Part shown: positions 28,932 to 58,765 of the stretch, piece after piece
Layout of the letters: each line of letters starts with the position of its first letter
How positions within the stretch are numbered: position 1 is the stretch's first letter
Virus record (IMG/VR): IMGVR_UViG_3300015609_000147
Length of the DNA: 64,000 nucleotides
Source of the DNA: an uncultured virus (IMG/VR IMGVR_UViG_3300015609_000147)
Lineage: Duplodnaviria > Heunggongvirae > Uroviricota > Caudoviricetes
Direction: 5' to 3' (one strand)
The notes under the pieces: generated by a model
What the model saw: only the letters and a program-made list of their open reading frames with translations
The model's database searches: none
Told to the model about the DNA's origin: nothing
Program-made: the position numbers and the translations under genes

Positions 28932-30581
28932 CTACTGACCTCCCTGTGGTTCTTGCTCGTTGGGGGCCGGGGCACCGCTGCCATAGCCCGAGTACTTGCG
29001 CAGCGCATCCGCGAAGTCGCGCACGGCAGACGTGGCCCAATCGCCCTCGGTCATGCGCTGCTCGCCCTCGCCCAGAATCGGCTCGGTCACCAGGAACATG
29101 CGCTCGGTCTTCTTGGCCTGCCCGGGCCGGGTCACGTTCATCGGCTTGGTGCGCACCGGGCAGCCCTGCCCCTCGGCAAAGCGCACCACCGTGGGCGTGA
29201 AGCGGGTCTGGGGGAAGGGGTAGCGGTCGCCCGTGCGCTGGCACCATTTCAGATAGGCGGCATAGGCCTGGGTGATGGCGCAGGAGTGGTAGGGCAGATC
29301 CAGCTCGCCCGCCTGCCACTCGGACCAGAACAGCTCGGGGCTCTTGCGGTTGATCGCAATCAGTGCCGACTTGGCTTCCGTCATCGGGGCCGGGGCAAAG
29401 GGGTGGAAATCGCCCAGGGGGTAGTTGAGCAGGTAGTGGTAGAACGCCTCCACCCCGCCGCTGTCGCGCCAGTCGCCAAGTGCCTTGTAGTACTCGAAGC
29501 CCTTGGCCCGGGGCGTGTAGACCACCAGGTAGCGCCGGTCGGAGTTGTCCAGCGCCAGCGGCTGCAGCTCGTTGGAGAGGAACACGATGTTCATGTGGTT
29601 CTTCTCCTCGCGCCGCGTGAGGTGCTTGGGGTTGATCTGCACCGTGGGCGAGGTGATCAGCGCCTTCAGCCGGTTCTTGTTGTGGACCAGCTCGGCCCGG
29701 CTGGACACCTCGTCGCCCACCACGAACAGCTTGCAGCTGCGCCAATCGTTGTGCTTGTCCTCCAGCTCGTCCTGCCCCACCAGGGCGCCGTACTTGCCGT
29801 AGATGGCGACCATGATGTCGAACAGGAAGTTCTTGCCCGCGCCCTCATCGCCATGCATCACCACCGCCGTGCGCAGCTTGGTGCCGGGATGCTGCAGTGG
29901 GTAGGCCAGCCAGCACAACAGCCAATGCATGATGTCGCCGGTATCGCCCTCATCGGGCGTGGCCCGGCTGGTCAAGAAGGAAACGAGTTCCAGCATGGGC
30001 TGCACGTCGCCCTCTTTCGGCACCATGGCCATGCCGTCGAACAGGTTCACGGTGGAAGCCGGGTCGGCCTGCAGGGTGGGGTCGAACACCACGTCTTCCA
30101 GCCGCACCGTGCGCCGCTTCTCGCTGGCCTTCCACATCCGCACCATGTCGGCGCCATGGGCGTGGCCCATGTTGGCGATCTTCATGATCAGCCGCTCCGA
30201 TCCGTCCCACACCGTGTCCGTGCCGTAGATCAGCGCGAAGTTCTCGATCAGGTGGTTGAACCGGCCCCAATCGATGGTCTTCTCCTTCTTTCGCCCCTGC
30301 ACCGGCTGGTCAGTCGCAGGGCTCTTGCCACCCCCATCCCCAGAGTCGCGCGCAGCTGCGCCTTTTTTGGGGGACGGGGGGCGCTGGGCGAGATCCGGCG
30401 CCGGCCGCGCCTCGCCCGCGATGCGCACACCCGACTGAAAGTCGACGTGCACAACAGCCCCATCCAGCGGCGCTGGCGCGCCGTGAGTGGACGAAGCATG
30501 CGACTCTCCGGTCGCATGCGGTGGCGCCGTTAACGGCAATGGCGCCGCGCTGGGGTTGAGGTTGTCGGTGTTCTCAGCCAT
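28932..30581 (-). CDS. SF3 (D5/DUF5906-type) replicative helicase
   Basis: Walker A GDEGAGKN, Walker B FVVGDE, FLSN, DRRY. Confidence 0.9.
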   Translation of the reverse strand: MAENTDNLNPSAAPLPLTAPPHATGESHASSTHGAPAPLDGAVVHVDFQSGVRIAGEARPAPDLAQRPPSPKKGAAARDSGDGGGKSPATDQPVQGRKKEKTIDWGRFNHLIENFALIYGTDTVWDGSERLIMKIANMGHAHGADMVRMWKASEKRRTVRLEDVVFDPTLQADPASTVNLFDGMAMVPKEGDVQPMLELVSFLTSRATPDEGDTGDIMHWLLCWLAYPLQHPGTKLRTAVVMHGDEGAGKNFLFDIMVAIYGKYGALVGQDELEDKHNDWRSCKLFVVGDEVSSRAELVHNKNRLKALITSPTVQINPKHLTRREEKNHMNIVFLSNELQPLALDNSDRRYLVVYTPRAKGFEYYKALGDWRDSGGVEAFYHYLLNYPLGDFHPFAPAPMTEAKSALIAINRKSPELFWSEWQAGELDLPYHSCAITQAYAAYLKWCQRTGDRYPFPQTRFTPTVVRFAEGQGCPVRTKPMNVTRPGQAKKTERMFLVTEPILGEGEQRMTEGDWATSAVRDFADALRKYSGYGSGAPAPNEQEPQGGQ

Positions 30582-31647
30582 ACCGCCTCGCCATCGCATC
30601 GACCACCGCCACCAGCTGCCGGCGGACCACGTCCAGGCCCTCGAGGACGTGCAGATCGTTGAAGTCCGTATCCTTCGGCCCCCGTGTCGAGGCCTTGAAG
30701 ATGGGCCAGACCAGATCGCAGCCGTCCGTGGCTTTGGCAGCGCGGGCAGCGGCCGTGCGGCCCGGGTTGATCAGCGCGCCCGTGCGCTTGTCCCGGGTCA
30801 TGTAGTCGTCATCTGCCAGGATCAGGATGCGCGTGGCCGGGTACAGCGCCCGCAGCACGCGCACGACCTCGGCCAGGTTGCCGGCGTCGAGGGCCACGAA
30901 CACCGGGTGCTGGTGGTCCACCGCCATGCGGGCGGTCAGGCCTGTGGCATAGCCCTCGACCACCATCAACAGCGCCGTGCTGCCGGCGTCGATCTCACCG
31001 AGGCGGATGCAGCAGCCCGGCTTGTCGAAGGCCCGCAGGTAGATCTTCATCCCGTCCGGCTTGATGAACTGCAGGCCGCGCAGCGCCTGGTCACGCGGCA
31101 GATCCGGCCGCACCAGGGGCAGCAGCGTGGTGCCGGCCGGCAAGCGCACCACCACGTCTTCATCACCACGCTTGCGGGCAGGCCAGCGCAGCGACAGCTG
31201 GCGGTCCAGCGCGCGGAAGGCCTCGCCCTGTACCTGCTTGCGGTCCAGATAGGGCGTGGTGGCCACGCGCACGCCCTTGCGCCAGATGTCGATGGCTTCT
31301 GCCATCGCATTGGCGATCTCGGCAGCACGTTCGATCGCCGCAGCCTCGGCCAGCGCCTTGCGGTGGGCCGCCTGGCGGGCGCGCTCGGCCTCGGACAGCG
31401 GCGCCAGGTCAATCTCCACCTTCTGCCAATCGCCGCCATGCCGATAGGTGCCGAACGAGCCGACCACATACGTGCCGCCAGCGTCTGGCTGCCACAGGTG
31501 CAGCTTGTACCAATCCTTGCCGCCGGCGCCGCAGGTGGTCTTGCGCCCTGCCCTGATCCTGTCAGGCAGATCACGCCGATCCCGGTCGCGCAGCGCGATG
31601 CCGAAATGCTCCATCTGGTGCAGCACGCTCTGGTAGTTGTCCATCAC
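30574..31647 (-). CDS. TOPRIM primase
   Basis: LQFIKPDG, VVEGYATG, DAGNL, ADDD, DFNDL. Confidence 0.9.
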   Translation of the reverse strand: MMDNYQSVLHQMEHFGIALRDRDRRDLPDRIRAGRKTTCGAGGKDWYKLHLWQPDAGGTYVVGSFGTYRHGGDWQKVEIDLAPLSEAERARQAAHRKALAEAAAIERAAEIANAMAEAIDIWRKGVRVATTPYLDRKQVQGEAFRALDRQLSLRWPARKRGDEDVVVRLPAGTTLLPLVRPDLPRDQALRGLQFIKPDGMKIYLRAFDKPGCCIRLGEIDAGSTALLMVVEGYATGLTARMAVDHQHPVFVALDAGNLAEVVRVLRALYPATRILILADDDYMTRDKRTGALINPGRTAAARAAKATDGCDLVWPIFKASTRGPKDTDFNDLHVLEGLDVVRRQLVAVVDAMARRYG

Positions 31648-32057: not shown

Positions 32058-32212
32058 TTCCGACGCGTTCCGAATTTTTNNNNNNNNNNNNNNNNNNNNN
32101 NNNNNNNNNNNNNNNNNNNNNNNNNNNNNNNNNNNNNNNNNNNNNNNNNNNNNNNNNNNNNNNNNNNNNNNNNNNNNNNNNNNNNNNNNNAAAAATTCGG
32201 AACGCGTCGGAA
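32058..32212. repeat. Perfect 22-bp inverted repeat flanking an assembly gap (N 32080..32190)
   Basis: TTCCGACGCGTTCCGAATTTTT / AAAAATTCGGAACGCGTCGGAA. Confidence 0.9.
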
Positions 32213-33350: not shown

Positions 33351-33378
33351 ATCCATTATGGATCAATCCACAATGGAT
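33351..33378. promoter_or_regulatory. OR-like operators
   Basis: ATCCATTATGGAT (33351..33363) and ATCCACAATGGAT (33366..33378). Confidence 0.8.
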
Positions 33379-33441
33379 CACAACGAAATGGACTCCGTTT
33401 TGTGCATTCCCTCCCCGGAGACTGATTGGGACACTATCCCC

Positions 33442-33840
33442 ATGGAAACATGGACAGACAGGGCCAAGGCCCGCATGCGCGAACTTGGCGTGTCTCAGGA
33501 GCGCCTTGCAGAGCAGTTCGGCATGACCCCGGCAGGCATGCAGAAGTGGCTGGCAGGGACTCGGCAGCCCGCGTTTGAAGAAATCAACCAGATTGCGGAT
33601 CGCCTAGGTGTGCCGCGCACTTGGCTGACTTATGGCACAGACCCAAACGACTCAACAGATGGGCTCACAGATCCCGCTAAAACGGTTCTGCGCAAGCTGA
33701 TCTCAATGGAAAGGGCCGGCCGGATGCCAGAAACCCTCTGGGATGCGATCGGCTTACTGGCGACCGCAGTGGCTCCGCTGCCTGACGAAACCGCCCAGGT
33801 CAAAAGTCCTGCCGAAACGAAGAACGGCACAACAAACTAG
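33442..33840 (+). CDS. cI: CI-like XRE repressor lacking an S24 peptidase domain
   Basis: 132 aa; HTH VSQERLAEQFGMTPAGMQKWLAGTRQP. Confidence 0.85.
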   Translation: METWTDRAKARMRELGVSQERLAEQFGMTPAGMQKWLAGTRQPAFEEINQIADRLGVPRTWLTYGTDPNDSTDGLTDPAKTVLRKLISMERAGRMPETLWDAIGLLATAVAPLPDETAQVKSPAETKNGTTN

Positions 33841-33908: not shown

Positions 33909-34388
33909 ATGACACAAAGTAAGCACTGCCTCAAATGCGGGGCGTCCACAGCATTCAGTGACGAGCCACCGCTTGCCTGCCCCACTTGCGGCGCGGTCTA
34001 CAGCAAGGTCGAGCAGGCATGGCGAGAAGGACAACCCACCCGCCCTCAGCCGACGTCACGCTCCACCTCGACAACACGGCAACATCGGGACGCAGATCAC
34101 CACGCCTTTGCAGCCAGGCTTAGAGAAGAAAGCATCTACCCAACATTTCGTGCTGTTGTGAAGATCGCCTACTGGCTGGGAGTGGCACTGGCCGTCCTCA
34201 TCGTGGTGGGCGGGATCTTCACATCGTTCAGTACAGGAGCTGGTGCTTTTATTGGAGGCATCGTTGTTGGCGCACTCGTGTTCGTCCTCGCCAAGGTAGC
34301 CAAGGAGATGAGCCTGATGCTGGCCGATCTGAGCGACGCCACCGTCAGATCCGCAGCTCAGGCAGAGGCATCGCGTCAGTCAAGCTGA
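33909..34388 (+). CDS. Zn-ribbon plus 2-TM membrane protein downstream of cI
   Basis: CLKC...CPTC and two hydrophobic helices. Confidence 0.75.
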   Translation: MTQSKHCLKCGASTAFSDEPPLACPTCGAVYSKVEQAWREGQPTRPQPTSRSTSTTRQHRDADHHAFAARLREESIYPTFRAVVKIAYWLGVALAVLIVVGGIFTSFSTGAGAFIGGIVVGALVFVLAKVAKEMSLMLADLSDATVRSAAQAEASRQSS

Positions 34389-34406: not shown

Positions 34407-34446
34407 ATCCAAAATGGATTGACACAAATAATCCAATTTGGATAAT
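34407..34446 (+). promoter_or_regulatory. pL-like promoter overlapped by two operators
   Basis: TTGACA (34419)-16 nt-GATAAT (34441); ATCCAAAATGGAT 34407..34419 and ATCCAATTTGGAT 34431..34443. Confidence 0.85.
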
Positions 34447-34481: not shown

Positions 34482-34712
34482 ATGTCCCTTGCCCCTCTTC
34501 TGGCGCTCCATGAAGCGCTGCAGGAAGCCGAGCAGTTCATCGCCGGCTTCGAGAACGATCCCCATCAAGAAACTGATGTCGGCCGCCTGCTGAAGAAGCT
34601 GCGCGGCCAGCTCGACGTCACCCGCCTGGTCGTCGATGTCACGCGCGCCCAGGCTGCGGCCGATGCTGCCGGTGCCGTGCTGACGGGCGCTGAAATGCGG
34701 GGTGCGGCATGA
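34482..34712 (+). CDS. Hypothetical early-left protein
   Basis: 76 aa, GGAGG RBS, first gene after the promoter. Confidence 0.75.
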   Translation: MSLAPLLALHEALQEAEQFIAGFENDPHQETDVGRLLKKLRGQLDVTRLVVDVTRAQAAADAAGAVLTGAEMRGAA

Positions 34713-35746
34713 GCGTGCAGCCCATCCTCGATCTGGTGGCCCACCTCACGGGCGGCGCTCGCAGCCCCGACCACGACCTGCTGCTGTCATGGCTGGCCTA
34801 CCCGCTGCAGCATCCCACTGGCAGATTGACCAAGGCCATGGTGCTGCACGGCCCGCAAGGCAACGGCCAAGGCACCCTGCTGGAAACCATGGCGCGCATC
34901 CATGGGAGCGCCTACCTCTCGCTGAGCAGTGCGCAAAGACTGCTGGACGGCGGCAACGGAGTGCTGGCCGGCAAGCGCCTGGTGGTGTTCGACAAGGCTC
35001 CGCAGGGAGAGGCTGCCCATGACGCCCTGGCGCAGCTGCTTGATTCACTCACCCTGCACATCACACGCAAGGGCCACGCCCCCCGCACCGAGCCCAATCA
35101 CCTGAACCTGCTGTTCGCGTGCCGCGACAAGTCCACTCAGGGCTGGTCACCGGCCCGGTTTCTCACCATAGAAACCGCGCCGCCGCGCGAGCCTGAGTTC
35201 TACCGCGCCCTGATCAACTGGCGGGCGACGGACGGACATGTGGAGTTCGCTCAGTACTTGCTCCAGTACCCCATCAGTGCCGCCTTCCTGGCCAACTGCA
35301 CGCTGGCGGAAGAGACCGCCGCAGCGATGACCGAGGCATCACCCATCCGCACAGCCACGCTGGCCGAGGTGCTGGACCGCGCCAGCGCCACGATCTGGGA
35401 CGCCGAGCGCACGCTGGACAGGCTGCCCGAAGGCTCTCCGCTGTGGAACCACTGGTATGGCCGCATGTGCGGTCTGTACACGCTGCTGCAGTGCTGTGGC
35501 GCCCTGCCCGTCGGGCCGTTCGGCCGGTCAGCCCATGAGCTGCAGGGCCTGCTCAAGACTGCCCGCCCCCAGCTTCCCGGTGGCTTTGAACGCTTCCCGG
35601 TCGTTGAGGCGCAGCAGTGGCTTGGCGAGCATGGAATCCAGGCGACCGTCGACGAGATCCCGCACCTGCAGCGCCACCTCGTCGCGGGGTTGGCCAAGCG
35701 AGCACCGACCGAAACCACAGCCCATGGAGACCAGCCATGGAACTGA
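34709..35746 (+). CDS. Degenerate paralog of the phage SF3 helicase ATPase domain plus unrelated C-terminal region
   Basis: Shares WLAYPLQHP with the helicase; Walker A GPQGNGQG, Walker B VVFDK. Confidence 0.8.
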   Translation: MSVQPILDLVAHLTGGARSPDHDLLLSWLAYPLQHPTGRLTKAMVLHGPQGNGQGTLLETMARIHGSAYLSLSSAQRLLDGGNGVLAGKRLVVFDKAPQGEAAHDALAQLLDSLTLHITRKGHAPRTEPNHLNLLFACRDKSTQGWSPARFLTIETAPPREPEFYRALINWRATDGHVEFAQYLLQYPISAAFLANCTLAEETAAAMTEASPIRTATLAEVLDRASATIWDAERTLDRLPEGSPLWNHWYGRMCGLYTLLQCCGALPVGPFGRSAHELQGLLKTARPQLPGGFERFPVVEAQQWLGEHGIQATVDEIPHLQRHLVAGLAKRAPTETTAHGDQPWN

Positions 35747-35874: not shown

Positions 35875-36032
35875 ACACGCGCCGCATTGAACTGGACGGC
35901 CCGCACCGCAGCCGCCTGCACCAGCGCCGCGTGCGCCGGCAACTGCTGGCCCTGGGCATCCTGGCCGCAGCGCTGATCTGCAGCCCCTGCATCGCCCTGC
36001 TGATCCACAGCCTGACCGGAGGCGCGCCATGA
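35871..36032 (+). CDS. Small single-TM protein
   Basis: 53 aa, ATGA overlaps at both ends. Confidence 0.6.
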   Translation: MNTRRIELDGPHRSRLHQRRVRRQLLALGILAAALICSPCIALLIHSLTGGAP

Positions 36033-36334
36033 CCATGGAGCTGCGTATCCACGGCCAGGTCACCGCCTGCATCTGCCGCACCACCACCGATGGCCGGCCG
36101 CTGCTGGAGGTGGAGTTGAAGACGCCAGACGGCCAGGCCGTGCATGCACGGCACATCTACCCCGACAACACAGCCGCCAGCAGCCATGCGGCCATGACGC
36201 TGGCGCGCCAGCTCAAGGGCCAACAGGCCGAGCTGTACACCACCAACCCGCGTTTCACTTGGCAGCGCATGGACTGCCTAGCGCAGCACATCCGCGCCAC
36301 GTCCACGCCCTGCCCTCGCAAGGATCTCGCATGA
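36029..36334 (+). CDS. Hypothetical protein, possibly OB-fold
   Basis: 101 aa; IHGQV...RTTTDGRPLL is SSB-like (weak). Confidence 0.55.
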   Translation: MTMELRIHGQVTACICRTTTDGRPLLEVELKTPDGQAVHARHIYPDNTAASSHAAMTLARQLKGQQAELYTTNPRFTWQRMDCLAQHIRATSTPCPRKDLA

Positions 36335-36621: not shown

Positions 36622-36851
36622 CCAGCACCGCCGCATGCAAGGCCTGCACCCACTGGCTGCCTGACACCAGCGACCCGCGCATGGTGCGCCTGGGCTTCGC
36701 CCAATGCGCCAGGCACCTGATGCCGGGCCGCACCTTCAATGCCGATTCGCGCTGCGACCAATTCAGCGCCATGCCCGCCGACCAGCTCGCCGCCCGCCGC
36801 GAGATCGCCGTGCAGCGTGTGCGCCAGCTCAAGCACAAGGAGGTGCGCTGA
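36618..36851 (+). CDS. Small Cys-containing protein
   Basis: CKACTHW...C...CDQF. Confidence 0.65.
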   Translation: MTSTAACKACTHWLPDTSDPRMVRLGFAQCARHLMPGRTFNADSRCDQFSAMPADQLAARREIAVQRVRQLKHKEVR

Positions 36852-39013
36852 TGGCACCCAAGACCAAAGACCCATTGATCCAGCGCGAAGTGGTGATCAG
36901 CGCCGAGGCCACAGGCAAGGGCGGCAAGCCCCACCCCCAGGCGGGCCAGCGCGGCAAGGTGATCGGCAAGACGCCCGGCGGGCGCCAGTACCAGATCGCC
37001 GTGGGCGACAGCCTGGTCAACCTGCCCATGGACGCCTTCGAGGTCGTGCAGGCCGAGCGCGAGGACAGCACTGACGCCGGCGCGATCGTGCACCCCACGC
37101 TGCCCATCGCCCAGATCGCGCCCAGCCGCACGAATCGCAGGGTGATCGAGGACGACGCGCTGCACGACATGGCCGCCACCATGAAGCTGTACGGCGTGCT
37201 GCAGCCCCTGCTGCTGCGCCGCCTGCCGGCAGAGCGCCTGCAGGACACCTTCGAGGACGAAGCCACGCGCCGCGCCACGCACGAAATCATTGCGGGCGAG
37301 CGCCGGTACCGTGCCGCCCAGATTGCGGGCCTGCGCGCCGTGCCCTACATCGAGCGCGACGCGGACAACATGCACGCGCTGCTGATGCAGCTGATCGAGA
37401 ACCTGCACCGCAGCGACCTCACGCCGCTGCAGGAGGCCTTGGGCGTGCAGCGCCTGACCCTGGACCACGGCCTCTCAATCGACGGCGCCGCCGAGGCCCT
37501 GCACAAGAGCCGCACCCATGTCTTCGAGTCGCTGCGCCTACTCACACTGTGCCCCGAGGCCACAGCCGCCCTGGCCGCGCGCACGCTGACGCGCAGCGTG
37601 GCCCTGCTGGTGGCCCAGCGCCCTACCGAGGCCATCCAGACCGAATTCACCAAGCGCGTGCTCACGGGCGGCCCTGACGGCGGCCCCATGAGCTATCGCA
37701 GCGCCCTGGACCTGGCACGCCGCAGCTACATGCTCAAGCTGGACCAGGCCCCCTTTGCGCTGGACGATGCCACGCTGTGCCCGGCCGCCGGCGCCTGCTC
37801 GGTCTGCCCCAAGCACACCGGCGCGTCGCCCGAGCTGTGGGACAAGAACGATGCAGACGTCTGTACCGACACCGCCTGCTTCGCCGAAAAGAAGGACGCC
37901 CACTTCGAGCGCATGAAGGCCCAGGCCCAGCAGCGCGGCCAGCAGATCATCACCGGCCGCCAGGCCCGCGACATCATGCCCAGTGAGAACGGCGCGCCCC
38001 GTGGCTACCTGCTGCTGGACAAGCCCAGCCAGGGCAGCAGCGCGCCCGTGCGCCAGGTGCTGGGCCAGGACGTGCCGGCAGCCAGCGTGGTGCTGATCGA
38101 GGCGCCCAGCGGCAACCTGGTGGAAGCCGTGCCCACGCACACCGCCAGCGCGGCCGTGAAGGTCAACGGCGAACGGCAGGCGGCTGCCAATGCCCAGGCC
38201 GAGCCGCCGGCCGAGCCCACGCGCCAAGCGCTGCAGCGCGAGTACGAAATGCGCTGGCGCGAGCGCGCGGCCGAGGCAACGATCGACGGGCTTCTGCAGT
38301 GCGTGCCCGAAGGGCTGGACCACATTCCCAGCCGCATTGCCCTGCAGATCCTGAAAATGCTGGCCGTCCAGACGCCCCCTCGCCTTCTGTACCGCATGTT
38401 CCAGGTGGACGGCAAGGATGGTCGGGCAGAAACGGACTTGGAGAATGCTCTGGAGGATCTCGCCGAGCAGGATCTGCCCGCGCAGATCCAGTACATGCTC
38501 ATGATGGGCTGCACCCTCGGCCTGGACCAGGGCGAGCCACTCCTCGAGGACTTGGTGGACCTGGCCAACGTGGATCTCGAGTCGATCCAAAGCCAAGTGC
38601 AAGACGAGATGAAAGCCGAGGCCGCCGCACGCGCAGGCAAGGCAGCCCTCACAGACAAGGCCACGCCCAAACTCAAGAAGGGCAAGGCCACGGCCGCAGA
38701 GGCCAGCCGCGCGATCGCCGACGCGATGGCCGCCGCCGAGGTCACCACGCCCAACTCCATCGAACCGCTGCAGCAGGTCCGCATCCGCGTCGACCTGCGC
38801 GGACCCGGCAAGAAGCTCCTGCCCACCAGGGGCCGCCTGGCCGTCGCCATCCAGCCCATGGGCGACCGCGCCTGGATGGTCGAGCTACCCATCGATTCCT
38901 CGGTGTCCCTGGAGGATGACGAGGCCATGGCCTCGACCAAGTGCTGGGAGCTGAGCGCCGACTACACCGAGCTGGAAATCCTCAATACCGAACCCCAGGA
39001 GGCCACGCCATGA
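36851..39013 (+). CDS. Large ParB/Spo0J-family protein
   Basis: GVLQPLLLR, IIAGERRYRAA, ENLHRSDL; Cys cluster CP..GACSVCP...CTD.ACF; 720 aa. Confidence 0.88.
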   Translation: MAPKTKDPLIQREVVISAEATGKGGKPHPQAGQRGKVIGKTPGGRQYQIAVGDSLVNLPMDAFEVVQAEREDSTDAGAIVHPTLPIAQIAPSRTNRRVIEDDALHDMAATMKLYGVLQPLLLRRLPAERLQDTFEDEATRRATHEIIAGERRYRAAQIAGLRAVPYIERDADNMHALLMQLIENLHRSDLTPLQEALGVQRLTLDHGLSIDGAAEALHKSRTHVFESLRLLTLCPEATAALAARTLTRSVALLVAQRPTEAIQTEFTKRVLTGGPDGGPMSYRSALDLARRSYMLKLDQAPFALDDATLCPAAGACSVCPKHTGASPELWDKNDADVCTDTACFAEKKDAHFERMKAQAQQRGQQIITGRQARDIMPSENGAPRGYLLLDKPSQGSSAPVRQVLGQDVPAASVVLIEAPSGNLVEAVPTHTASAAVKVNGERQAAANAQAEPPAEPTRQALQREYEMRWRERAAEATIDGLLQCVPEGLDHIPSRIALQILKMLAVQTPPRLLYRMFQVDGKDGRAETDLENALEDLAEQDLPAQIQYMLMMGCTLGLDQGEPLLEDLVDLANVDLESIQSQVQDEMKAEAAARAGKAALTDKATPKLKKGKATAAEASRAIADAMAAAEVTTPNSIEPLQQVRIRVDLRGPGKKLLPTRGRLAVAIQPMGDRAWMVELPIDSSVSLEDDEAMASTKCWELSADYTELEILNTEPQEATP

Positions 39014-39809: not shown

Positions 39810-41678
39810 TCAATCACCCGAAGGAGGGCTCCTATGCTTGCCTGCGCTTGATGACCTAATGCCACTTCCCACAACTAGCCGGAAAATCCACCACCAAGCA
39901 TAAATACTTTCCACAGATCGCCCTTCCTCACTCCCCAACAAGCCATGCGCTACCGCATTGCGAAAATTTGCTCCGAGAGGAGAGCAGAAAATCGCTTTTA
40001 TCTGAAAAATAGTGTTTTCATCGAAGACTTTCTTCAGTTCAATTTTTTCCACTAGCGAACTCAAACCCACTTCATTCTCTATACCGTATTGATCTATAAA
40101 AGTTGTCTGCGCACCAAGCCGCTTGAGATGAAATCTAGTCAAAGCCTCCAGTTGCGGGGCCAGCAAGTAAATAGCAGCAGCGAAATCCCCGTTGAAACCC
40201 TCCCAAAATCCTTTAGTAAATTGATCTACACGACCAGGAGGAACGATAGGAGAAGCGGCAACAATTTGACTAATGTCATATTTAGCAATGGTGTATTCCA
40301 TTGCCAAGACTCTCCAAGCAGGAAGCACTAAGCCTTGGCCCACAAATTTCATTTCAATGGCATGATGCTCCATTATTTTTGCAAACAATGCATCCTCATG
40401 CACCTCAGAATCTGCATTCAAACCGGCAGCAGGCGTCTTAGCAACTACTCGCCCATCTTCACTAATATGCGTAGATGATGCCAGTCTGCCAAAGACGAAC
40501 CTTTTCAACGAATCTTTGGCATTTATAGTTAGATTCGATATATTTGCGAACGGATGGAGATCTGCAAATTTGATCAAAGCCTGCAATTTATCCAATCCAC
40601 TAACCGAAGCCTCTGCCATCTGAACAAGCTCGGTTAAATCGGTAGACTCAGTAGTAAAAGTCTGCATGGACTTTACTGCCTCCTCCCCAATCTCGGTAAG
40701 ACGCTGTGACAGACGGCTAATTTCTTCGTCGACTCGCCTTGAACCCCGGAGCCTCCTAGAAATTTTTCTTAGCGCCTGAATTGCATCCTCTATAAACTCT
40801 TGTGCAACAAGATAGCCGGACCCAGGATCTGATGCAATCCTTGCATCGGCTTCTTTCTCATAACTTTTTGCTGACTCCAAATCCATATCAGCTGCACGCT
40901 CAGGGTTGCCCAAGCGACTAAACCACTGATTAGCCAACGCCAAAAACGATCTAGCCTTAAAGTAATGAGATCCTTGCTCAACCATAGAATGACCTTGTTG
41001 AGCAACAAGCTCAGCAAGAATATCACCCTTATCACCTTCAATCTTACAATCAAATATTAATTGAGCCAAACTCAAACCTAAACTACCCTCAACCTTCAAG
41101 GCCCTGTCGGCCTCATCGAATAATCTACTAGAAATATTCACCAACAGGGCATCAGCGTCACCGCGTAGTTGTTTGCACAAGGTAATTGCGCGACGCCATT
41201 CATTAATAGTCTCTACCCAATTATCCTCGTTAGGAACAAATTTTACATACGAATCGATTGCTGTAAGAGCAGCATTTTTATCTTTAGGCCTCGACAACAA
41301 CCAAGCCAAATCAGATAACCTAGCGCGCAGCTTTCTGTTAATGGCCACCTGAGCTAACACAGAGAAAACGGCTACTTCATCGGGTCCAAAATATTCAACG
41401 AGGGCCGAGTGCCTATCAGGAAACCAAACAGACGGAATAAATGGACTATTAACTTCTTCTGCCTGCAGTCTAAGTGAACAGGCGTCCGCGACAATCCATA
41501 GAACCTTCACCACAGGCCAATCTTTTTCATCCATCTCCGCAAGACGTCGCGCCGCCGAAGAGAAAATCATCCAAAGTTCATGGAAGCTCAATGAGTCGTT
41601 TATAAGTTCTTTATGAGCATCTAATGCAGCAATTGCAACCTCGGCAGATATCTCCGTACCTTCAGGAAATTTATGCAT
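39810..41678 (-). CDS. DUF4209-like protein with HEPN-type Rx4H motif
   Basis: 622 aa, AT-rich; LAPQLE...GLSSL...FCSPLGANFRNAVAHGLL. Confidence 0.78.
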   Translation of the reverse strand: MHKFPEGTEISAEVAIAALDAHKELINDSLSFHELWMIFSSAARRLAEMDEKDWPVVKVLWIVADACSLRLQAEEVNSPFIPSVWFPDRHSALVEYFGPDEVAVFSVLAQVAINRKLRARLSDLAWLLSRPKDKNAALTAIDSYVKFVPNEDNWVETINEWRRAITLCKQLRGDADALLVNISSRLFDEADRALKVEGSLGLSLAQLIFDCKIEGDKGDILAELVAQQGHSMVEQGSHYFKARSFLALANQWFSRLGNPERAADMDLESAKSYEKEADARIASDPGSGYLVAQEFIEDAIQALRKISRRLRGSRRVDEEISRLSQRLTEIGEEAVKSMQTFTTESTDLTELVQMAEASVSGLDKLQALIKFADLHPFANISNLTINAKDSLKRFVFGRLASSTHISEDGRVVAKTPAAGLNADSEVHEDALFAKIMEHHAIEMKFVGQGLVLPAWRVLAMEYTIAKYDISQIVAASPIVPPGRVDQFTKGFWEGFNGDFAAAIYLLAPQLEALTRFHLKRLGAQTTFIDQYGIENEVGLSSLVEKIELKKVFDENTIFQIKAIFCSPLGANFRNAVAHGLLGSEEGRSVESIYAWWWIFRLVVGSGIRSSSAGKHRSPPSGD

Positions 41679-41818: not shown

Positions 41819-43033
41819 CTAAAGCCACATTCGTGCTGCCAAGTCTTCCGCTCGGAAGCTCGCGTAACGCTGAGCCATCTTGCTCCCCGGCGCCCAGCCC
41901 ATGATGCGATGGATCTCTGCCTCGCGGAACATCCAGTCCCCCGTCTTGGTGCGCATCTCGAACCAGAGACACGTCGCCTCATGCCGCAAGTCGTGCTCGG
42001 TGAGCCCATCGCACTGCGCATAGCCGAACAGGCTGGCGAACCGATTGGACAGCCGCGACGAGACCCTGGCCAGCTCCTGCGCATCCTCTTCCCCCGTCCA
42101 CCACGGAAACACCAGCTGCTGCTCGCCCTCATCCGGCAGGGCCTGAAGGTAGGCTTCCAGCACCCCGAGCAGCTCGGGCCGAATGGGCACCTCGCGGTAC
42201 TTGACCTTGCCGTGCCACTGCTTGCTAGCCTTGGCGCGGATCACCCGCGTCGCCAGCCCGAACTGCCCACGCCGAAGCGTATAGGCCTCGCGCAGCCGCA
42301 GCCCGGTGTACAGGATCAGCAGGAACATCGCGCGCAGGGCTGGCGCGTCGTCCAGCTTGATGGTGCGCTCACGGTCCGGCCGGCGCTCGCCGGCCAGCAC
42401 CCGCTCAATGCGGTCCAGCTCGCCAGGCAGCAGCCGGCGCTCGCGCTGAACATCTTCCTTGGCAAACTTGGGCTTGGCCTGGTCTCCGGCCGCAGCATTG
42501 AGCGCCTCGATATCAGCCCGATCCTTCGGGGTGTATGTGGCCGCACCCTTGGGCAGCAGGCGCAGCGGGTTGCCCACCATGGCATCGGGATGCTGCCGCA
42601 GCCACCAATCCAGGCAGCGTGACAGAGAGCCCACGCGCTTGCGGATGGTGCCGGGAGAGAAGTTGCGCTCCAGCTTGAGGCTGCGCACCCAGGCCTCTGC
42701 CCACTTGTAGGTGAGGTCGGCGATCAGCACCTTGCCCACCTCGTCGACCAGCAGCTCAAGGACCGGAATGTCGGTGGCCGCAGGCTGGCCGGTGTTGATC
42801 CAGGCCACCAGCACGAATCGCAGCCGCTCAGTGGGCTTCGGGGCTGAAGCCGTCTGCTGCACCAGGCCAGCTGGCACCACGCCGGCAGCGAGCAGCTGGT
42901 CGACCTGCTGGCCGTACTGCTCGGCCTCGGCCTGGTCGTCGAACGTCATGTAGACGGGCTTGGGCAGCAGCTTGCTGCGAATCGTCAGCTCATATCGCCC
43001 TCGGGGCGTTTTGCGCACACTCGACAAACTCAC
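41819..43033 (-). CDS. int: Tyrosine integrase
   Basis: TGLRLRE, HDLRH, MGW, RY catalytic motifs. Confidence 0.95.
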   Translation of the reverse strand: MSLSSVRKTPRGRYELTIRSKLLPKPVYMTFDDQAEAEQYGQQVDQLLAAGVVPAGLVQQTASAPKPTERLRFVLVAWINTGQPAATDIPVLELLVDEVGKVLIADLTYKWAEAWVRSLKLERNFSPGTIRKRVGSLSRCLDWWLRQHPDAMVGNPLRLLPKGAATYTPKDRADIEALNAAAGDQAKPKFAKEDVQRERRLLPGELDRIERVLAGERRPDRERTIKLDDAPALRAMFLLILYTGLRLREAYTLRRGQFGLATRVIRAKASKQWHGKVKYREVPIRPELLGVLEAYLQALPDEGEQQLVFPWWTGEEDAQELARVSSRLSNRFASLFGYAQCDGLTEHDLRHEATCLWFEMRTKTGDWMFREAEIHRIMGWAPGSKMAQRYASFRAEDLAARMWL

Positions 43034-43785: not shown

Positions 43786-46200
<2,415 letters not shown>

Positions 46201-46320
46201 GGGAATCCTCGGTTTGTCAGCGGAAGATGGTCCGCCCACCGGTGTATTTCAACCCCGCAGCCCGAAAGGATTTCGGGCCACAGGGACTTGCGCTGCCGGA
46301 CCTTTGCAGGCAGCGGCGCA

Positions 46321-47511
46321 TCAGGCTTTCTTGGCCGCCTCGCGGTAAACCAGCAGCGGTGCTTTTCCGTCTTCGATGGTGGACTCGTCCACCACCACCT
46401 TCTCGACATTGTCGGCATTGGGCAGCTCGTACATGGTGCCGATCAGCGATTGCTCCAGGATGGAGCGCAGGCCACGCGCACCCGTCTTGCGCGCCAGCGC
46501 CTTGCGGGCGATGGCCTTGAGCGCGGCAGGCCGGATCTCCAGCTCCACGCCTTCCATGGCCAGCAGCTTGCTGTACTGCTTGACCAGGGCGTTCTTGGGC
46601 TCGGTCAGGATCTGCACCAGGGCGTCTTCGCCCAGCTCGGCCAGGGCCGTGACCACGGGCATGCGGCCGACCAGCTCGGGGATGATGCCGAACTTGATCA
46701 GGTCTTCAGGCTCGATCTCCTGGAACACTTCCGAGATGGAGCGCTGCTTCTTGCTCTTGACCGTGGCGCCAAAGCCGATGCCCGACGCCTCGGTACGGTT
46801 CTCGATGACCTTCTCCAGGCCCGCGAACGCGCCACCGCAGATGAACAGGATGTTGGTCGTGTCGATCTGCAGGAAGTCCTGGTTCGGATGCTTGCGGCCG
46901 CCTTGCGGGGGCACGCTGGCCATGGTGCCTTCGATGAGCTTGAGCAGGGCCTGCTGCACGCCNNNNNNNCCGCGCTGCGCACGCTCGACGTCGTATTCGC
47001 AGCTTTGCAGCAGCTTCTGGATGATGTTCTCGACGTCCTCGCCCACGTAGCCGGCCTCGGTCAGCGTGGTGGCATCGGCCATGACGAAGGGAACGTTGAG
47101 CATGCGCGCCAGCGTCTGCGCCAGCAGCGTCTTGCCGGAGCCCGTGGGACCGATGAGCAGGATGTTGCTCTTGGCCAGCTCAATCTCGTCCTTGCCGGCC
47201 TTGTCCTTGTGACGCAGGCGCTTGTAGTGGTTGTATACGGCGACAGCCAGCGTGCGCTTGGGCAGGTCCTGGCCGATCACGTAGTTGTCCAGGTTGGCCT
47301 TGATTTCGGCGGGCGTGGGCAGGTCGCCTCGGCCGTCCTTGGCCTCGGTGCTGGGCTGCTCGTCGCGGATGATCTCGTTGCAGAGATCGATGCACTCGTC
47401 GCAGATAAAGACTGACGGACCCGCGATCAGCTTCTTGACCTCATGCTGGCTCTTGCCGCAGAAGGTGCAATAAAGGTTTTTTTCGCTGGAGGAGCCTTTT
47501 TTCTCGGCCAT
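46321..47511 (-). CDS. clpX: ClpX ATPase (internal N gap 46963..46969)
   Basis: CTFCGK Zn finger, [11 protein letters not shown] loop. Confidence 0.97.
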
Positions 47512-47618
47512 GGGGTCGGTGCCTTGTTACAGAAATATGGAAAAGGATGATAACCAAATGGAAAGCGGCGTTTTCCGTAGGGGGAAAACGCCGCCCATTC
47601 TCATACAGCCTCCGGGCT

Positions 47619-48227
47619 TCAGGAGCGCTTGTTGATCACCTGATCGACCAGGCCGTAGTCCTTGGCTTCGTCGGCGGACAGGAAGTAGTCGCGCTCGGTG
47701 TCGTGCTGGATCTTTTCCAGCGGTTGGCCCGTGCGCTCGGCCAGGATCTTGTTCAGGCGCTCGCGGGTCTTGAGGATCTCGCGGGCGTGGATCTCGATCT
47801 CGGTGGCCTGGCCCTGCATGCCGCCCAGCGGCTGGTGGATCATGACCTGGGAATTGGGCAGCGCAAAGCGCTTGCCCTTGGTGCCAGCGGCCAGCAGGAA
47901 GGCACCCATGCTGGCTGCAATGCCGGTGCACAGCGTGGACACATCGGGCTTGATGAAGTTCATCGTGTCGAAGATGGCCAGGCCAGCGCTCACGGAGCCG
48001 CCGGGGCTGTTGATGTAGAACGAAATGTCCTTGTCGGGGTTTTCGCTTTCAAGGAACAGCAGCTGGGCCACGACGAGGTTGGCCGTCTGGTCATTGACAG
48101 GGCCCACCAGGAAGATCACCCGGTCCTTGAGCAGGCGCGAGTAGATGTCGTACGACCGCTCTCCGCGGCCGGACTGTTCGATGACCATTGGGATCATGCC
48201 CAAACCCTGAGTTTCCAATGCGCTCAT
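47619..48227 (-). CDS. clpP: ClpP proteolytic subunit
   Basis: DIYSRLL, YINSPGG, AASMG, MIHQP. Confidence 0.98.
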
Positions 48228-48362
48228 GTTTTCTCCAGTACTAGGGGGCTACTTTAGCCGTATCCGGAAAGAAAATGGGGCTTGTGCGCCAAAGCACAAG
48301 CCCCGCAGATGCCAACCCGCCCGCCGATCTCACGAAGCGGCAGGCAGGCGGTGCTCAAACCC

Positions 48363-49673
48363 TCAGGCCTGGCCCATCAGTTCGTCGAAGGACACGGCCT
48401 TGTCGGAGACCTTGGCCTTGCCCAGCACGAACTCGGTCACGTTGTTTTCGATGACAACGGCTTCGACTTCAGCCAGGCGTTGGCGGTCGCCGAAGTACCA
48501 GCGTGCCACGTCTTCGGGCTTTTCGTAGCTGGCGGCCAGCTCTTCCACGTGGGCCTTGATCTGCTCGGGCGTGGCGTGCAGCTCGTTGGCGCGCACCAGC
48601 TCGGCCACCACCAGGCCCAGGCGCACGCGGCGCTCGGCTTGGGGCAGGAACACGTCTTCAGGGATCTCGGCCTTGTCGGCGTCCTTGATGCCGCGCTGCT
48701 GCAGCTCGGCGCGGGCGCCTTCCAGCAGACGTGCGACTTCAGCCTGCACCGAAGCCTTCGGCAGTTCCAGCTCGGCCTTGGACACCAGGGCGTCCATCAC
48801 GGCTTGCTTGTTGCGGCCCTGGACGCGGAACTTGACTTCACGCTCCAGGTTCTTCTTGATGTCGGCGCGCAGGCCTTCGACCGTGCCTTCAGCCACGCCC
48901 AGGGCCTTGGCAAAGGCCTCGTCCACTTCGGGCAGGTTGGCGGCTTCGATCTTCTTGACCGTCACCAGGAAGTCGGCAGTCTTGCCGGCCACGTCCTTGC
49001 CGTGGTAGTCGGCGGGGAAAGCCAGGGGGAAGGTCTTGGACTCGCCGGCCTTCATGCCGCGCACTGCGTCTTCGAATTCCTTGAGCATCTGGCCTTCGCC
49101 GACCAGGAACTGGAAGTCTTCGGCCTTGCCGCCGGAGAAGGTCTCGCCGTCGATCTTGCCTTCGAAGTCCACGGTCACGCGGTCGCCGTCCACGGCCACA
49201 TCGGCCTGGGCGCGCTGCGCGAAGGTGCGGCGCTGCTTGCGCAGGATGTCCACGGTCTTGTCGATGGCGGCGTCGTCCACTTCGGCGGTCAGCTTCTCGA
49301 CTTCGGCCGAGGTCAGGTCACCGATCTTGACTTCAGGCATCACTTCGAAGATGGCTTCGAACTGTGCCTCGCCCTCGGGAGCGCCTTCCTTTTCGGAGAT
49401 GCGGGGCTGGCCGGCCACGCGCAGCTTGGCTTCGTTGACAGCCTGTGCGAAAGCCTCGCCGACCTTGTCGTTGAGCACTTCGTACTGCACCGAATAGCCA
49501 TAACGCTGGGCCACCACGCTCATCGGCACCTTGCCGGGACGGAAGCCGTCCATCTTCACGGTGCGCGCCACTTGCTTGAGGCGGTTCTCGACTTCGCTCT
49601 GGATGGAGTTCAGGGGCAGGCTCAGCGTGATCTTGCGCTCGAGCTTTTCAAGGGTTTCAACAGTAACGGCCAT
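48363..49673 (-). CDS. tig: Trigger factor
   Basis: GFRPGKVP signature, FKBP-like middle domain. Confidence 0.98.
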
Positions 49674-50000
49674 GTTTGTTCCTATGAGGGATTGGACCGT
49701 GCCGGCTGCTGTACAGCCCGCACCGTATTGCGCAAAAGTCACGGTGCAACGCGAGCCAAAGCCAGTCGGCCGCGCGGCACCTCAGATTTCAAGGGCTTAC
49801 ATCACATGCGCCTGGCCGCTGGGGACCGCACATGGTTCGCTCAACCCGTGATGTAAGCGAAGCCGGACATTATAAACGAGGCGGTTTTAACCTCCGGACG
49901 CACCCACTTGCGGGGAATCCCCCAATCCGTTTGCAAACGGGCCGTCCCTACAGGGAGCGGGCTTGAGCAGTGTTGGCCGCAGTTGAGCGGCGTTGGTGCG

Positions 50001-50772: not shown

Positions 50773-51810
50773 CTACACCAGCCCTTGCTGCGCAGGCTCC
50801 ACGCTGGGCAGCATGTAGGGGTCGAAGCGACAGACCTCCTCCCCCATCCATTCATTGATAGTCTGCGCAAAGTAGGTTTGCAGCGGCTGGATTTCGTGGC
50901 GTGCGAACACCCGCGCAGCGTTGATCACGTCACCGAATCCGCCCGCGTTGGCTGGAACCACCCCGATGAGCTGCGGCGGCACGCGATGGGCCGCAAGCTG
51001 GTCATCGCGGCTCACGTTCTTGATGTTGAAAAATTCGTCCTTGGCTGCGGCTTCGCCGATGGGCAGCAGCTGGATGGCCTTGTCTTTTCCGCCTGGCGAA
51101 TGGAAGAACAGATTGCGGAAATTGCCCATGCCCTTCGAGGATTTCAGGGCCTGGCGCAGCGCGTCCACATCGTCCTTTGCCACTTCGGGATCGCTCAGAT
51201 ACAGGATGTAGCCGGCGTGGCTCCCGTTGTTGTAATACCGACGGCGAAACAGCGTGGCGGACTCATTGAGCCATGCCGATTGCAGGGCGGCCAGGTACTG
51301 GGGCAGGCCATAGATTTCCTGGTGCACGTCGGGCTCGAGCAGGTGGCATATGCTGCCATTGGAAAAGATGTGCTCGCTTTGCCAGGAGCGCACGAAACCG
51401 AAGCGCCGCAGATCACGATGGCGCCGGGTGTACTTGGCCAGGGCATGGCGCAGCGGCATGGCACCGCCGAGCCGGTTTAGCGGCCGCTCCAGATAACCAT
51501 TGCCGAACACCTGAAAATCCAGTGCAGCCCATTGCAGCGTGGCGCGACTGAGCAGGGGATGCGGGCGCAGCGTGCTGGCCAGCACCTGGGCCTTGAAGTG
51601 GATGGCGCTGGCGTGGTGCGTGGATGCGCGCAGGGAGCGCGCCAGGCCGTCGAAGCTGATGGGCGTTTCGTACCAATCCCCATTGAGCCAGCATTCCACA
51701 TAGTCCAAGATTTCGCGCCGGTCCAGCACGGCCTCGGGATCGCCAAAAGAGAAGGCCTCGGCCGTCGCCGGCGCCGTCAGGGTGCCCGCTGGGGCTGTGG
51801 TGTCTGTCAT
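50773..51810 (-). CDS. P2 gpQ portal (PBSX family)
   Basis: QEIYGLPQYL, FRRRYYNNGSHAG, AAHRVPP. Confidence 0.95.
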   Translation of the reverse strand: MTDTTAPAGTLTAPATAEAFSFGDPEAVLDRREILDYVECWLNGDWYETPISFDGLARSLRASTHHASAIHFKAQVLASTLRPHPLLSRATLQWAALDFQVFGNGYLERPLNRLGGAMPLRHALAKYTRRHRDLRRFGFVRSWQSEHIFSNGSICHLLEPDVHQEIYGLPQYLAALQSAWLNESATLFRRRYYNNGSHAGYILYLSDPEVAKDDVDALRQALKSSKGMGNFRNLFFHSPGGKDKAIQLLPIGEAAAKDEFFNIKNVSRDDQLAAHRVPPQLIGVVPANAGGFGDVINAARVFARHEIQPLQTYFAQTINEWMGEEVCRFDPYMLPSVEPAQQGLV

Positions 51811-53660: not shown

Positions 53661-53817
53661 GCCATCGAGTGTCGGCATGCCCTCGCGCGCGCGCATCACC
53701 TTTGCCCGCTGCAAGGCTCTCGCACCGGGCATTCAGTTGGACGCCTACGCGGCGCGGCGGGAGCATAGAGGCATCCCCAAACGGGGCCGATCAACACCAT
53801 CCACCGAACTGCAGCAC

Positions 53818-54651
53818 ATGCCCACCAAGTCCAAATGGTTCTGTGTGGCCACCGAAGGCGCCACCACCGACGGCCGCGAAATCACGCGCGCCGAAATCCA
53901 GCAGATGGCCGCCAGCTACGACCGCGAAAAGACCTACGGCGCGCGGGTCTGGCTGGAGCACTACCGGGGCACCGTGCCCGGTGGGCCGTTCGACGCCCTG
54001 GGCGATGTGCTGGCCCTGAAGGCCGAAGAAAACGGCGACAAGAAGCTGCAGCTGTTCGCGCAGATCGAGCCGCTGCAGGGCCTCATCGAGATGAACAAGA
54101 AGGGGCAGAAGATTTTCAGCTCCATCGAAATCCACCCCAGCTTCCCCAAGACGGGCGGCGCCTACTTCTTTGGCCTGGCCGTCACCGATAGCCCCGCCTC
54201 GCTCAGCACCGAGGTGCTGAAGTTCTCGGCCGGCGATCTGGCGAAAAGCCCGTTTGTCGGTCGCAAGGTGGACCAGGCGCTGATGTTCTCGGCGGCCGAA
54301 CCTGCGGAGCTGGTGTTTGAAGAGACGCCGACTGGTGGCGAAAGCGGCGCCGTGCAAGCAGTGGTTGGCGCCTTCACCAAGGTGCTGGAACGCTTCATGC
54401 CGCAGCCCGAGAAAAAGCCCGAGCCTGTGCAGTTGCACAGCGTGGACCCGGACAAGGTGCTGGAGGCCTTTACCGGAATCGGCAAGGTGCTCGAAGGCAT
54501 GGCGAAAAAGCAGGACGAGGTGGCCAGCCAATTCGCCCAACTGCAAACCCAGCACACCGACCTGGTGAAAAAGCTCAGCCAGGAAGAGCAGCCCGGCCAG
54601 CAACGCCCGCCCGCCACGGGCGGCAATGGTGCGGAACTCGTGGACTACTGA
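53818..54651 (+). CDS. P2 gpO capsid scaffold
   Basis: ATEGATTDGR, GLAVTDSPAS, RPPATGG. Confidence 0.95.
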   Translation: MPTKSKWFCVATEGATTDGREITRAEIQQMAASYDREKTYGARVWLEHYRGTVPGGPFDALGDVLALKAEENGDKKLQLFAQIEPLQGLIEMNKKGQKIFSSIEIHPSFPKTGGAYFFGLAVTDSPASLSTEVLKFSAGDLAKSPFVGRKVDQALMFSAAEPAELVFEETPTGGESGAVQAVVGAFTKVLERFMPQPEKKPEPVQLHSVDPDKVLEAFTGIGKVLEGMAKKQDEVASQFAQLQTQHTDLVKKLSQEEQPGQQRPPATGGNGAELVDY

Positions 54652-54704
54652 CCTGGTGCCACGCAACACAAGACCACCACCACACGCGAAATAGGAAACA
54701 GATC

Positions 54705-55718: not shown

Positions 55719-55789
55719 GCGACTGAGCCAAGACACAAGGCCGCGACAGCCGAATGGCGGCGGCCAACAACTCAAGGCACCACTGAACC

Positions 55790-57102: not shown

Positions 57103-57104
57103 CC

Positions 57105-57335: not shown

Positions 57336-57338
57336 CCA

Positions 57339-58764: not shown

Positions 58765-58765
58765 C

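Follow-up and report, generated by a model that had tools for sequence, protein, structure and literature searches.

Why would a temperate phage that encodes an intact superfamily 3 (SF3) helicase carry, in another operon, a second SF3 ATPase core from which every catalytic motif has gone? The question is raised by the IMG/VR virus record IMGVR_UViG_3300015609_000147 (Uroviricota, Caudoviricetes), of which a stretch of 64,000 nucleotides, here called the window, was analysed as a whole. The open reading frame (ORF) concerned, here the core ORF, stands in the early-left operon of a lambda-like prophage and its coordinates, with those of its neighbors, are in Table 1. An initial annotation made from the letters alone had taken it for a retained, motif-dead copy of the phage's own helicase that could poison helicase rings or serve as a decoy for defenses. 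By sequence and structural model the product is a folded SF3 ATPase core that would be unable to bind or hydrolyse ATP; sequence comparison also indicates that it was not recently copied from the helicase of its own phage. What such a protein may do instead is weighed further below.

Catalytic motifs of the core ORF

Residues 2-189 of the core ORF are aligned by BLASTP with residues 198-395 of the phage helicase (helicase residues being numbered from a start at 30599), with 72 identities in 199 positions (36%, E 1e-29), and so the co-linear homology that had been noticed over the first c. 200 residues is secure. The core ORF passes the Pfam cut-off for DUF5906 (PF19263; 39 bits where 27.6 are required, E 1.4e-9, residues 46-138), as does the helicase with 69.7 bits, and it also matches PHROG 'DNA primase' families (best 3.4e-15). 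A six-frame scan of the window found these two DUF5906-like frames and no others. For the helicase itself the start at 30581, which had been proposed earlier, is the most likely one because the MAENT encoded there agrees with the starts of relatives.

All four of the motif changes reported in the initial annotation are present as stated when the two proteins are aligned pairwise. Walker A, GAGKN in the helicase, is GNGQG in the core ORF at a place where each of 124 long relatives has lysine, and Walker B is FDK instead of GDE, the glutamate having a frequency of 0.95 among the same 124. At sensor-1 (motif C) FLSN is replaced by FACR, and at the arginine pair (DRR[YF]) DRRY is replaced by PARF, the asparagine of the one and the RR of the other each being found in 123 of the 124. 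GKN is a normal Walker A for the DUF5906 family, and the phage helicase is an ordinary member of it. The four motifs are replaced not just in the core ORF but in both of its orthologs, those of L004 and L005; at the arginine pair L004 shares PAR with the window, and in L005 the last arginine is gone as well (SPAQF). With none of the four left, the core ORF is the most motif-degenerate member seen. It retains the structural motifs W230, A232, P238, N334 and N337, its frame is uninterrupted in every variant seen, as the claim of an intact gene had it, and its G+C content at third codon positions (GC3), 0.82, is in line with that of the adjoining genes.

Predicted fold and missing parts

An AlphaFold2 model of the core ORF, from a 66-sequence alignment, has a mean predicted local distance difference test (pLDDT) score of 90.3 and consists of two domains, residues 1-200 and 215-328, with a low-confidence linker. 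Foldseek matches the core to known structures with E 2.4e-11. With VIA-align, residues 1-197 of the model superpose on residues 402-604 of the NrS-1 helicase with Z 21.4 and a root-mean-square deviation of 2.4 over 194 residues; other SF3 proteins follow, SaPI5 PriRep5 with Z 16.4 and vaccinia D5 with Z 15.4, and, at lower scores, PriRep1 (13.0), papillomavirus E1 (11.7) and Rep40 of adeno-associated virus (AAV; 1s9h, 10.2), and AsfvPrimPol was also matched. Two parts of the helicase have no counterpart in the core ORF, namely the N-terminal region (residues 1-197) and the C-terminal domain. In the closest solved relatives the nucleotide site is at the junction of two neighboring subunits, and in one of them, SaPI5 PriRep5, replication is abolished by mutating Walker A, by mutating the beta-hairpin or by truncating the C-terminus (PMC9371898). 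By that standard the core ORF cannot be a helicase.

The C-terminal c. 135 residues had been described as unrelated to the helicase, and a comparison with the profile of the helicase C-terminus gives an hhalign probability of 0.2%, by which it is not a diverged version of that terminus. The all-helical domain found there instead (C-domain, module C) belongs to a family of 23 proteins, none of which has a name; phmmer matches 15 members, and the homology to one member, the protein P0002, has E 6e-81.

Ancestry

The part of the initial annotation that fails is the descent from the phage's own helicase. The core ORF is 33-41% identical to every helicase of the phage group, and its own is no closer than the others. 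The same is found across nine phages of the group, whose helicases are 66-99% identical to each other and whose cores are 24-96% identical: each core has 29-41% identity to every one of the nine helicases, again with the resident one no closer. A Spearman coefficient of 0.84 between helicase and core identities was dropped, the pairs not being independent.

In a FastTree phylogeny of 139 cores, the core ORF groups with P0001 and P0004 (98*) and is outside an 80-row clade (97*) that holds the phage helicase. In an IQ-TREE analysis of 67 rows a 35-row clade of true helicases (98*) leaves out both the clade of the core ORF and 15 other short forms. When 20 short rows were held together as one clade, the tree was 4.23 log-likelihood units better than that of the free search (p 0.575 in the approximately unbiased, AU, test), and so a single old short lineage is the best topology found, keeping in mind that long-branch effects are possible and that the group was named after the first tree. 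In the best tree the core ORF stands apart from the true helicases, though a tree joining its clade to the helicase type of the phage is not rejected (AU p 0.17).

A feature that had been cited in favor of a copy of the own helicase is the nucleotide identity at WLAYPLQHP, where 26 of 27 positions agree. The match is real; it is not a sign of an own copy, since the motif is family-wide (W in 141, A in 143 and Q in 135 of about 145 aligned rows) and the nucleotide match fits codon bias. The same codon is used at 49 of the 75 identical residues of the alignment, the probability of at least eight of nine codons being identical is 0.125, and overall the two genes are 55% identical in nucleotides. 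Gene conversion, considered on the basis of this match, was for the same reason discarded.

A chimeric gene in a mosaic slot

Most members of the family with the C-domain are single proteins of c. 250 amino acids in which a helical N-terminal part (module A) precedes it; they are here the A-C family. The first 55 residues of P0002 (249 aa) are identical at 54 positions to the 76-aa ORF immediately preceding the core ORF, and its residues 81-249 have 71% identity to residues 213-345 of the core ORF, so that P0002 is the same gene without the ATPase core. The resemblance AMTEAS/PMTEAK, previously counted towards homology with the helicase, does not belong there, the same stretch being present in P0002. 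The sequences indicate that the 76-aa ORF is the N-terminal part of an ancestral A-C gene, severed when the SF3 core (module B) was inserted, and that the insertion between A and C created the stop-start junction. At this junction the ATG of the core ORF, at 34709, overlaps the TGA of the 76-aa ORF (ATGA), in agreement with the translational coupling claimed at the outset, and the coupled ATGA start is kept in both the window and L006.

The slot has been rearranged in several other ways. The ORF has 381 amino acids in L004 and L005, with the window and L003 short of 36 tail residues; the 345-aa form is also found in L003, an IMG/VR contig, and is covered without gaps by contigs of two further runs from one study. 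Elsewhere (L006, L009, L015 and L018) the core is a stand-alone gene of 211 amino acids (P0004 type), preceded by an 80-aa A-like ORF and followed by an unrelated gene of c. 285 amino acids (module D), and P0003 is a fusion of C and D. From a contig of run X18 an in-frame stretch of 378 nt is missing (35328 to 35707, microhomology of 6 nt), so that the C-domain is gone and the core left. The arrangements seen are thus A with a separate B-C, A-C, C-D, separate A, B and D, and B alone, and from these comparisons the slot appears hypervariable, mosaic and accessory.

Some further observations concern the boundaries of the modules. A module end of the form ...G-A-A-stop overlapping the next ATG recurs in the window (34700..34712), in P0004, P0005-P0007, the short form of L027 and the 80-aa ORF of L006, a conserved junction that may be of use in translational coupling as well as in the exchange of modules. 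Module D (HFTEWECGHH...), at 8633..9487 (+) in L006 and part of a fusion with the C-domain in P0003 (residues c. 170-449), has no Pfam or PADLOC match. Downstream the slot is bounded by a gene of c. 100 amino acids with the pattern R-I-x-G-x-V-T-x-C-x-C-R-T-T-T, at 36029..36334 (+) in the window, 9773..10072 in L006, 906..1316 (-) in L027 and 1765..2100 (-) in L036, and without a family match.

Searches with the modules themselves gave little. No Pfam family was found for 28 A-C family members, even at E values up to 10, and an A-C model had no Foldseek match at E <= 0.001 in PDB and BFVD. In a VIA-wide comparison its best Z was 9.0, for the helical hairpin of residues 1-79 only and below what is meaningful for helical folds, with the C-domain alone barely covered. 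For the C-domain Atlas offers a weak lead, a score of 0.90 to a cluster with 17% Pox_D5 members, and it is not relied upon. PADLOC has no family for the core ORF, the 76-aa ORF, the helicase, P0002 or module D.

A family of short, core-only SF3 proteins

Short forms of the core are not restricted to this phage. A profile of 21 of them, at E <= 1e-10, defines a grouping made in this analysis, the short family, with 55 clusters, of which 54 are 209-273 aa and one is 531 aa. Several clusters are on contigs of 30-384 kb and so are whole genes. The names given to members are 'primase-helicase family protein' (in Delftia), 'putative DNA primase/helicase' or hypothetical. Motif retention in the 53 clusters scored is uneven: the arginine pair is kept in 52, the Walker A lysine in 25, the Walker B glutamate in 11 and the sensor-1 asparagine in five, and the only one with all four intact is the 531-aa protein.

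A column by column comparison of 66 short with 124 long proteins, sets that derive from searches seeded with the core ORF and its relatives and that include close kin, so that the counts are descriptive, shows which residues go and which stay. W230, A232, P238, K241, G255, K312, N334, N337, R355 and R356 are kept at frequencies of at least 0.91 (R355 0.94, R356 and K312 0.95, N334 and N337 1.00), and N343 (0.08), E297 (0.21) and K256 (0.53) are lost. Taken together the sequences point to the short family being an old, fast-evolving lineage of core-only paralogs in temperate Burkholderiales phages, in which the early-right operon codes for a full-length DUF5906 primase-helicase. The core ORF has the decay of the sensor-1 asparagine that is a trait of the family, with arginine in its place, and like the family it is in the early-left operon, with a full-length helicase on the other side of the immunity region, a layout also seen in L021 and L105. 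It departs from the stand-alone 209-273-aa form in being 345 aa long and fused to module C.

Co-occurrence with full-length helicases

In phages of the window type, 11 of 11 viral contigs have both the core and a helicase of 545-596 amino acids on the opposite strand. In a second group (P0027 type), the cores of which have 251-302 aa, a primase-helicase of 961 aa is present within the 7-kb flank in two of five contigs. Here too the helicase is on the minus strand, and it is followed by genes for cro-like and cI-like proteins, then by a small ORF, and then by the core with xis and int after it. The third group has a single representative, L105, which combines a primase-helicase of 911 aa with genes for cI-like and ParB-like proteins, a core of 234 aa that is ATGA-coupled, and an integrase. 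A ParB-like gene in the operon of the short core is found in L022 as well as in L105. The primase (c. 356 aa) and the helicase are separate polypeptides in the phage group of the window and a single protein of 911-961 aa elsewhere (L021, L105); in the window each matches part of phrog_2249, an 802-position profile annotated as DNA primase.

The reverse association is much looser. Among 80 helicase loci from species-representative genomes, with flanks of 9 kb, a short paralog is present in only two, L027 (Acidovorax) and L036 (Comamonas), both in the same slot and with further motif patterns of their own; a third locus has a split helicase. A scan of the contigs of species-representative genomes returned almost only true helicases, at no more than 36% identity, and no ortholog of the clade of the core ORF, and scans of viral contigs with P0010 and P0202 gave no matches.

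Selection

Values of dN/dS (Nei-Gojobori) among the window, L004 and L005 are 0.20-0.38 for the N-terminal domain, where the counts are small (10-18 non-synonymous and 14.5-17 synonymous substitutions), and 0.36-0.40 for the C-domain, and for comparison 0.04-0.24 for the helicase, 0.04-0.06 for the primase and 0-0.07 for module A. Four stand-alone cores have values of 0.23-0.48, with a synonymous excess in six of six pairs (binomial p 4e-9 to 0.0015). The substitution patterns indicate that the gene is constrained, though less so than the replication genes, and the claim that it is a retained one is upheld by these values and by the predicted preservation of the fold. The frameshifts or neutral evolution that would have spoken for a decaying gene were looked for in seven sequence variants; none has a frameshift or stop, and dN/dS is well below 1.

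Operon, promoter and shared operators

The order of features is cI-like repressor gene, membrane protein gene, operators with promoter, and then the early genes (Table 1). The second place of the core ORF behind a pL-like promoter, as claimed earlier, is correct, with the operator-controlled PL-like promoter followed by the 76-aa ORF and then the core ORF. The operator motif ATCCA-N3-TGGAT has eight strand matches where 1.66 are expected, a number reached by none of 100 shuffles. In lambda the order is cI-rex-PL, and that of the window presumably corresponds to it, with the DUF4282 gene where the rex genes of lambda are. RNA-library contigs cover the core ORF; DNA carry-over being possible, they are no sign of transcription.

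Table 1. Features of the window that are relevant to the core ORF
Feature	Position	Strand	Remarks
SF3 helicase of the phage, intact, DUF5906 (GAGKN, GDE, FLSN, DRRY)	28932..30599	-	BLASTP, Pfam, PHROG; probable start 30581
Toprim primase, own polypeptide	30574..31647	-	Pfam, PHROG
Two further operator copies	33351..33363 and 33366..33378 (region 33351..33383)	-	Over promoter-like site facing the replication genes; divergent immunity promoter
cI-like helix-turn-helix repressor gene	33442..33840	+	PHROG transcriptional repressor families, best 1.2e-16; start inferred from first ATG
Zinc-ribbon membrane protein (DUF4282)	33909..34388	+	Between repressor gene and PL-like promoter
Operator palindromes ATCCA-N3-TGGAT	34407..34419 and 34431..34443	+	Over the PL-like promoter; motif scan
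PL-like promoter TTGACA-16-GATAAT	34419..34446	+	11/12 positions; 2 such sites found, 0.3 expected
Module A, helical 76-aa ORF	34482..34712	+	Stop overlaps start of core ORF as ATGA
Core ORF, dead SF3 ATPase core with unrelated helical domain	34709..35746	+	345 aa, uninterrupted
Module B, whole SF3 AAA+ core without collar or C-terminal domain	34709..35323	+	Residues 1-205; structure comparison, motifs
Module C, all-helical domain, LQRHLVAGL motif	35345..35692	+	Residues 213-328; small family of hypothetical proteins
ParB-like protein	36704..39013	+	Same early-left operon, further downstream; Pfam

The immunity segment 33141..34448 (1306 nt) is replaced in a related phage, on a contig of run X17, by 1563 other letters, and the early-left genes of that phage are c. 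95% alike to those of the window, a pattern that looks like the swap of an immunity module. A run of N (masked or unresolved) at 32080..32190, between a phrog_24214-like gene and the immunity region, makes the genes there unreadable; the window has a second N run at 46963..46969.

Possible roles

In SF3 rings the arginine pair reaches into the ATP site of the neighboring subunit. Retention of that pair while the cis residues decay, as in the short family, is what is expected of a subunit that completes the site of its neighbor and offers none itself. A tentative reading of these sequence patterns, with a chance that we put at somewhat under even, is that the core is a mimic of a helicase subunit that binds SF3 rings. 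Its docking site would be the AAA+ tier of an SF3 helicase, which could belong to its own phage or to a co-resident phage or satellite, and because its nucleotide face is dead it would cap or interrupt the ring, with the outcome that helicase assembly and unwinding would be slowed, blocked or otherwise modulated. The C-domain would contribute a second contact. As the operators match at both promoters, the core gene would be switched on together with the helicase, and since short paralogs accompany so few of the helicase loci scanned and the slot is mosaic, it would be an accessory gene, outside the core replication machinery. In AAA rings inactive subunits depress the activity of wild-type ones, as reported in one study (PMC3711915).

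Several points weigh against ring binding. The trans-acting argument fits the short family more than it does the gene of the window, because the subclade of the window lacks three residues that the rest of the short family keeps, with alanine for R355 of the arginine pair, alanine for K312 and aspartate for G381. The sequences give no sign of the core being tuned to the resident helicase, since the 99% identical helicases of L005 and L018 accompany cores that are 50% identical. The N-terminal region aids ring formation in other SF3 helicases, and with this region absent incorporation of the core into rings may be weak. A poison expressed alongside one's own helicase looks costly, and the arginine pair might owe its conservation to protein structure or to DNA binding.

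Some of these points count in favor of a different, rather unlikely but still substantial, explanation, that the dead core is a re-used scaffold with a role unrelated to helicase rings, for instance binding to DNA, to a host factor or to the operon's ParB-like protein, its likeness to a helicase being only historical. The loss in the window subclade of even short-family residues and the want of a match between core and resident helicase are in keeping with it, as are the fusion of the core to, or its being followed by, modules C or D without known family, the ParB-like gene in the same operon in three phage groups, and the retention in the core ORF of the beta-hairpin lysine position (K325 of the helicase), the equivalence of which to the hairpin lysine mutated in PriRep5 is inferred. 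It has more difficulty with the full-length helicase of the same family in every contig that spans both sides, and with the arginine pair kept in 52 of 53 clusters despite decay in cis, which is the prediction for an interface with an active ATPase.

A narrower form of ring binding is that the dead cores are weapons between mobile elements, directed at rival prophages or satellites, whose SF3 primase-helicase rings they would stall, with the own helicase spared or tolerant. We regard this as improbable. The core would be made early after induction and would slot into the rings of the rival. If so, an arms race would explain both the mosaic slot and the fast divergence of cores beside near-identical helicases, and fusion to module C would be a further step, in which a fully inert core is a mere targeting handle.

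A still less probable account sees in the gene a by-product of recombination, a core module having landed in an A-C gene to give a fusion without function of its own or one that is slowly decaying. The near-isogenic variant without the core (P0002), the in-frame removal of the C-domain in the X18 contig, the 36-residue tail deletion in the window copy, its complete motif loss, and a dN/dS above that of the replication genes (0.28-0.39 versus 0.04-0.24) are all what it would lead one to anticipate. It is opposed by the seven variants free of frameshifts and stops, by a dN/dS that in each of the two domains is much lower than 1, a difference that is significant for the stand-alone relatives, by the confident model, by conservation of the coupled start in window and L006, and by the recurrence of the 345-aa form in L003 and the contigs of two further runs.

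The weakest idea, a decoy for host defenses that sense the helicase core of phages, is very improbable: host STAND (Avs) receptors can detect phage primase-helicases by their ATPase core, whether or not it is catalytically active, and the gene is in an early operon, in an accessory slot of variable content, but in that report (bioRxiv 10.64898/2026.01.04.697583) the cores recognised are RecA-type and not SF3, and binding of the target activates cell death, so that one more copy of the fold would supply a trigger and not take one away, while a literature search turned up no sensor of SF3 cores and PADLOC has no match to the core ORF.

Other features of the window

The lambda-like prophage that bears the core ORF extends from about 3 to 43 kb and encodes a tape measure protein, capsid E, S49 protease, lambda-type portal and GpA terminase. 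At its left edge, 1600..2907 (-) is a low-GC ORF (GC3 0.57, 435 aa) that resembles SH3 weakly at its C-terminus, with E 2.7e-4, a match that does not reach the Pfam cut-off. A second low-GC ORF, at 39810..41678 (-) with GC3 0.39 and 622 aa, has DUF7380 and DUF4209, adjoins the prophage integrase at 41819..43033 and matches the PADLOC candidate defense system PDC-S39 (E 7e-181); it is likely, to judge by these matches, a prophage-borne defense gene. Host genes for Lon, ClpP and trigger factor lie between this and a second prophage, the stretches concerned being 43786..49742 and 50773..64000. The second prophage, which continues to the end of the window, is P2-like, with portal, terminase, GpO, P2 capsid, GpM, GpL, GpR, GpS, GpV, GpJ and GpI.

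Relation to known systems and significance

With the DUF5906 or D5-type SF3 primase-helicases (NrS-1, SaPI5 PriRep5, vaccinia D5 and the P4 alpha type) the core ORF shares PF19263 and the core fold. It is without the Walker A lysine, Walker B glutamate, sensor-1 asparagine and arginine finger of these proteins, and without both their N-terminal primase/collar region and their origin-binding C-terminal domain, and so on catalytic and architectural grounds it is not a helicase. AAV Rep40 and Rep52 are small SF3-core-only proteins made alongside full-length Rep, and the likeness is that of a virus with a core-only SF3 protein besides a full-length initiator-helicase. Rep40, however, is an active ATPase from the same gene as full-length Rep, whereas the core ORF is a gene in its own right, in a different operon, that has diverged strongly and is catalytically dead.

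The delta-prime subunit of clamp loaders is an AAA+ subunit with a dead ATP site that keeps its arginine finger. The short family likewise has a decayed site of its own and an arginine pair that is kept nearly throughout, which suggests the edge of a hetero-oligomer, keeping in mind that delta-prime is of another AAA+ clade, that the short family is known here from sequences and that the window subclade is without the pair. The mode of action proposed is also that of dominant-negative subunits of ring ATPases (PMC3711915) and of trans-dominant truncated Rep, where an inactive subunit lowers the activity of the ring; those are laboratory mutants or transgenes, and the core ORF would be a natural gene under selection. 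As to the A-C family (P0002, P0005-P0007; Comamonas testosteroni and others), the 76-aa ORF and residues 213-345 of the core ORF are its two halves, the gene being whole there, while in the window the SF3 core breaks it up and leaves two coupled ORFs. A literature search, with subscription journals mostly outside its range, found neither a natural dead SF3 core paralog in phages nor a natural protein regulator or inhibitor built from a helicase's own fold.

SF3 primase-helicases drive the replication of many temperate phages, satellites and islands, and a family of dead, core-only paralogs that are under selection would be a new class of phage pseudo-enzyme. Nature provides near-isogenic variants that have the core, lack it or lack the C-domain, and these make the question of its role directly testable. 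If ring binding is true, the short cores would be a natural tool for dissecting ring assembly and a candidate mechanism for replication control or for competition between mobile elements.

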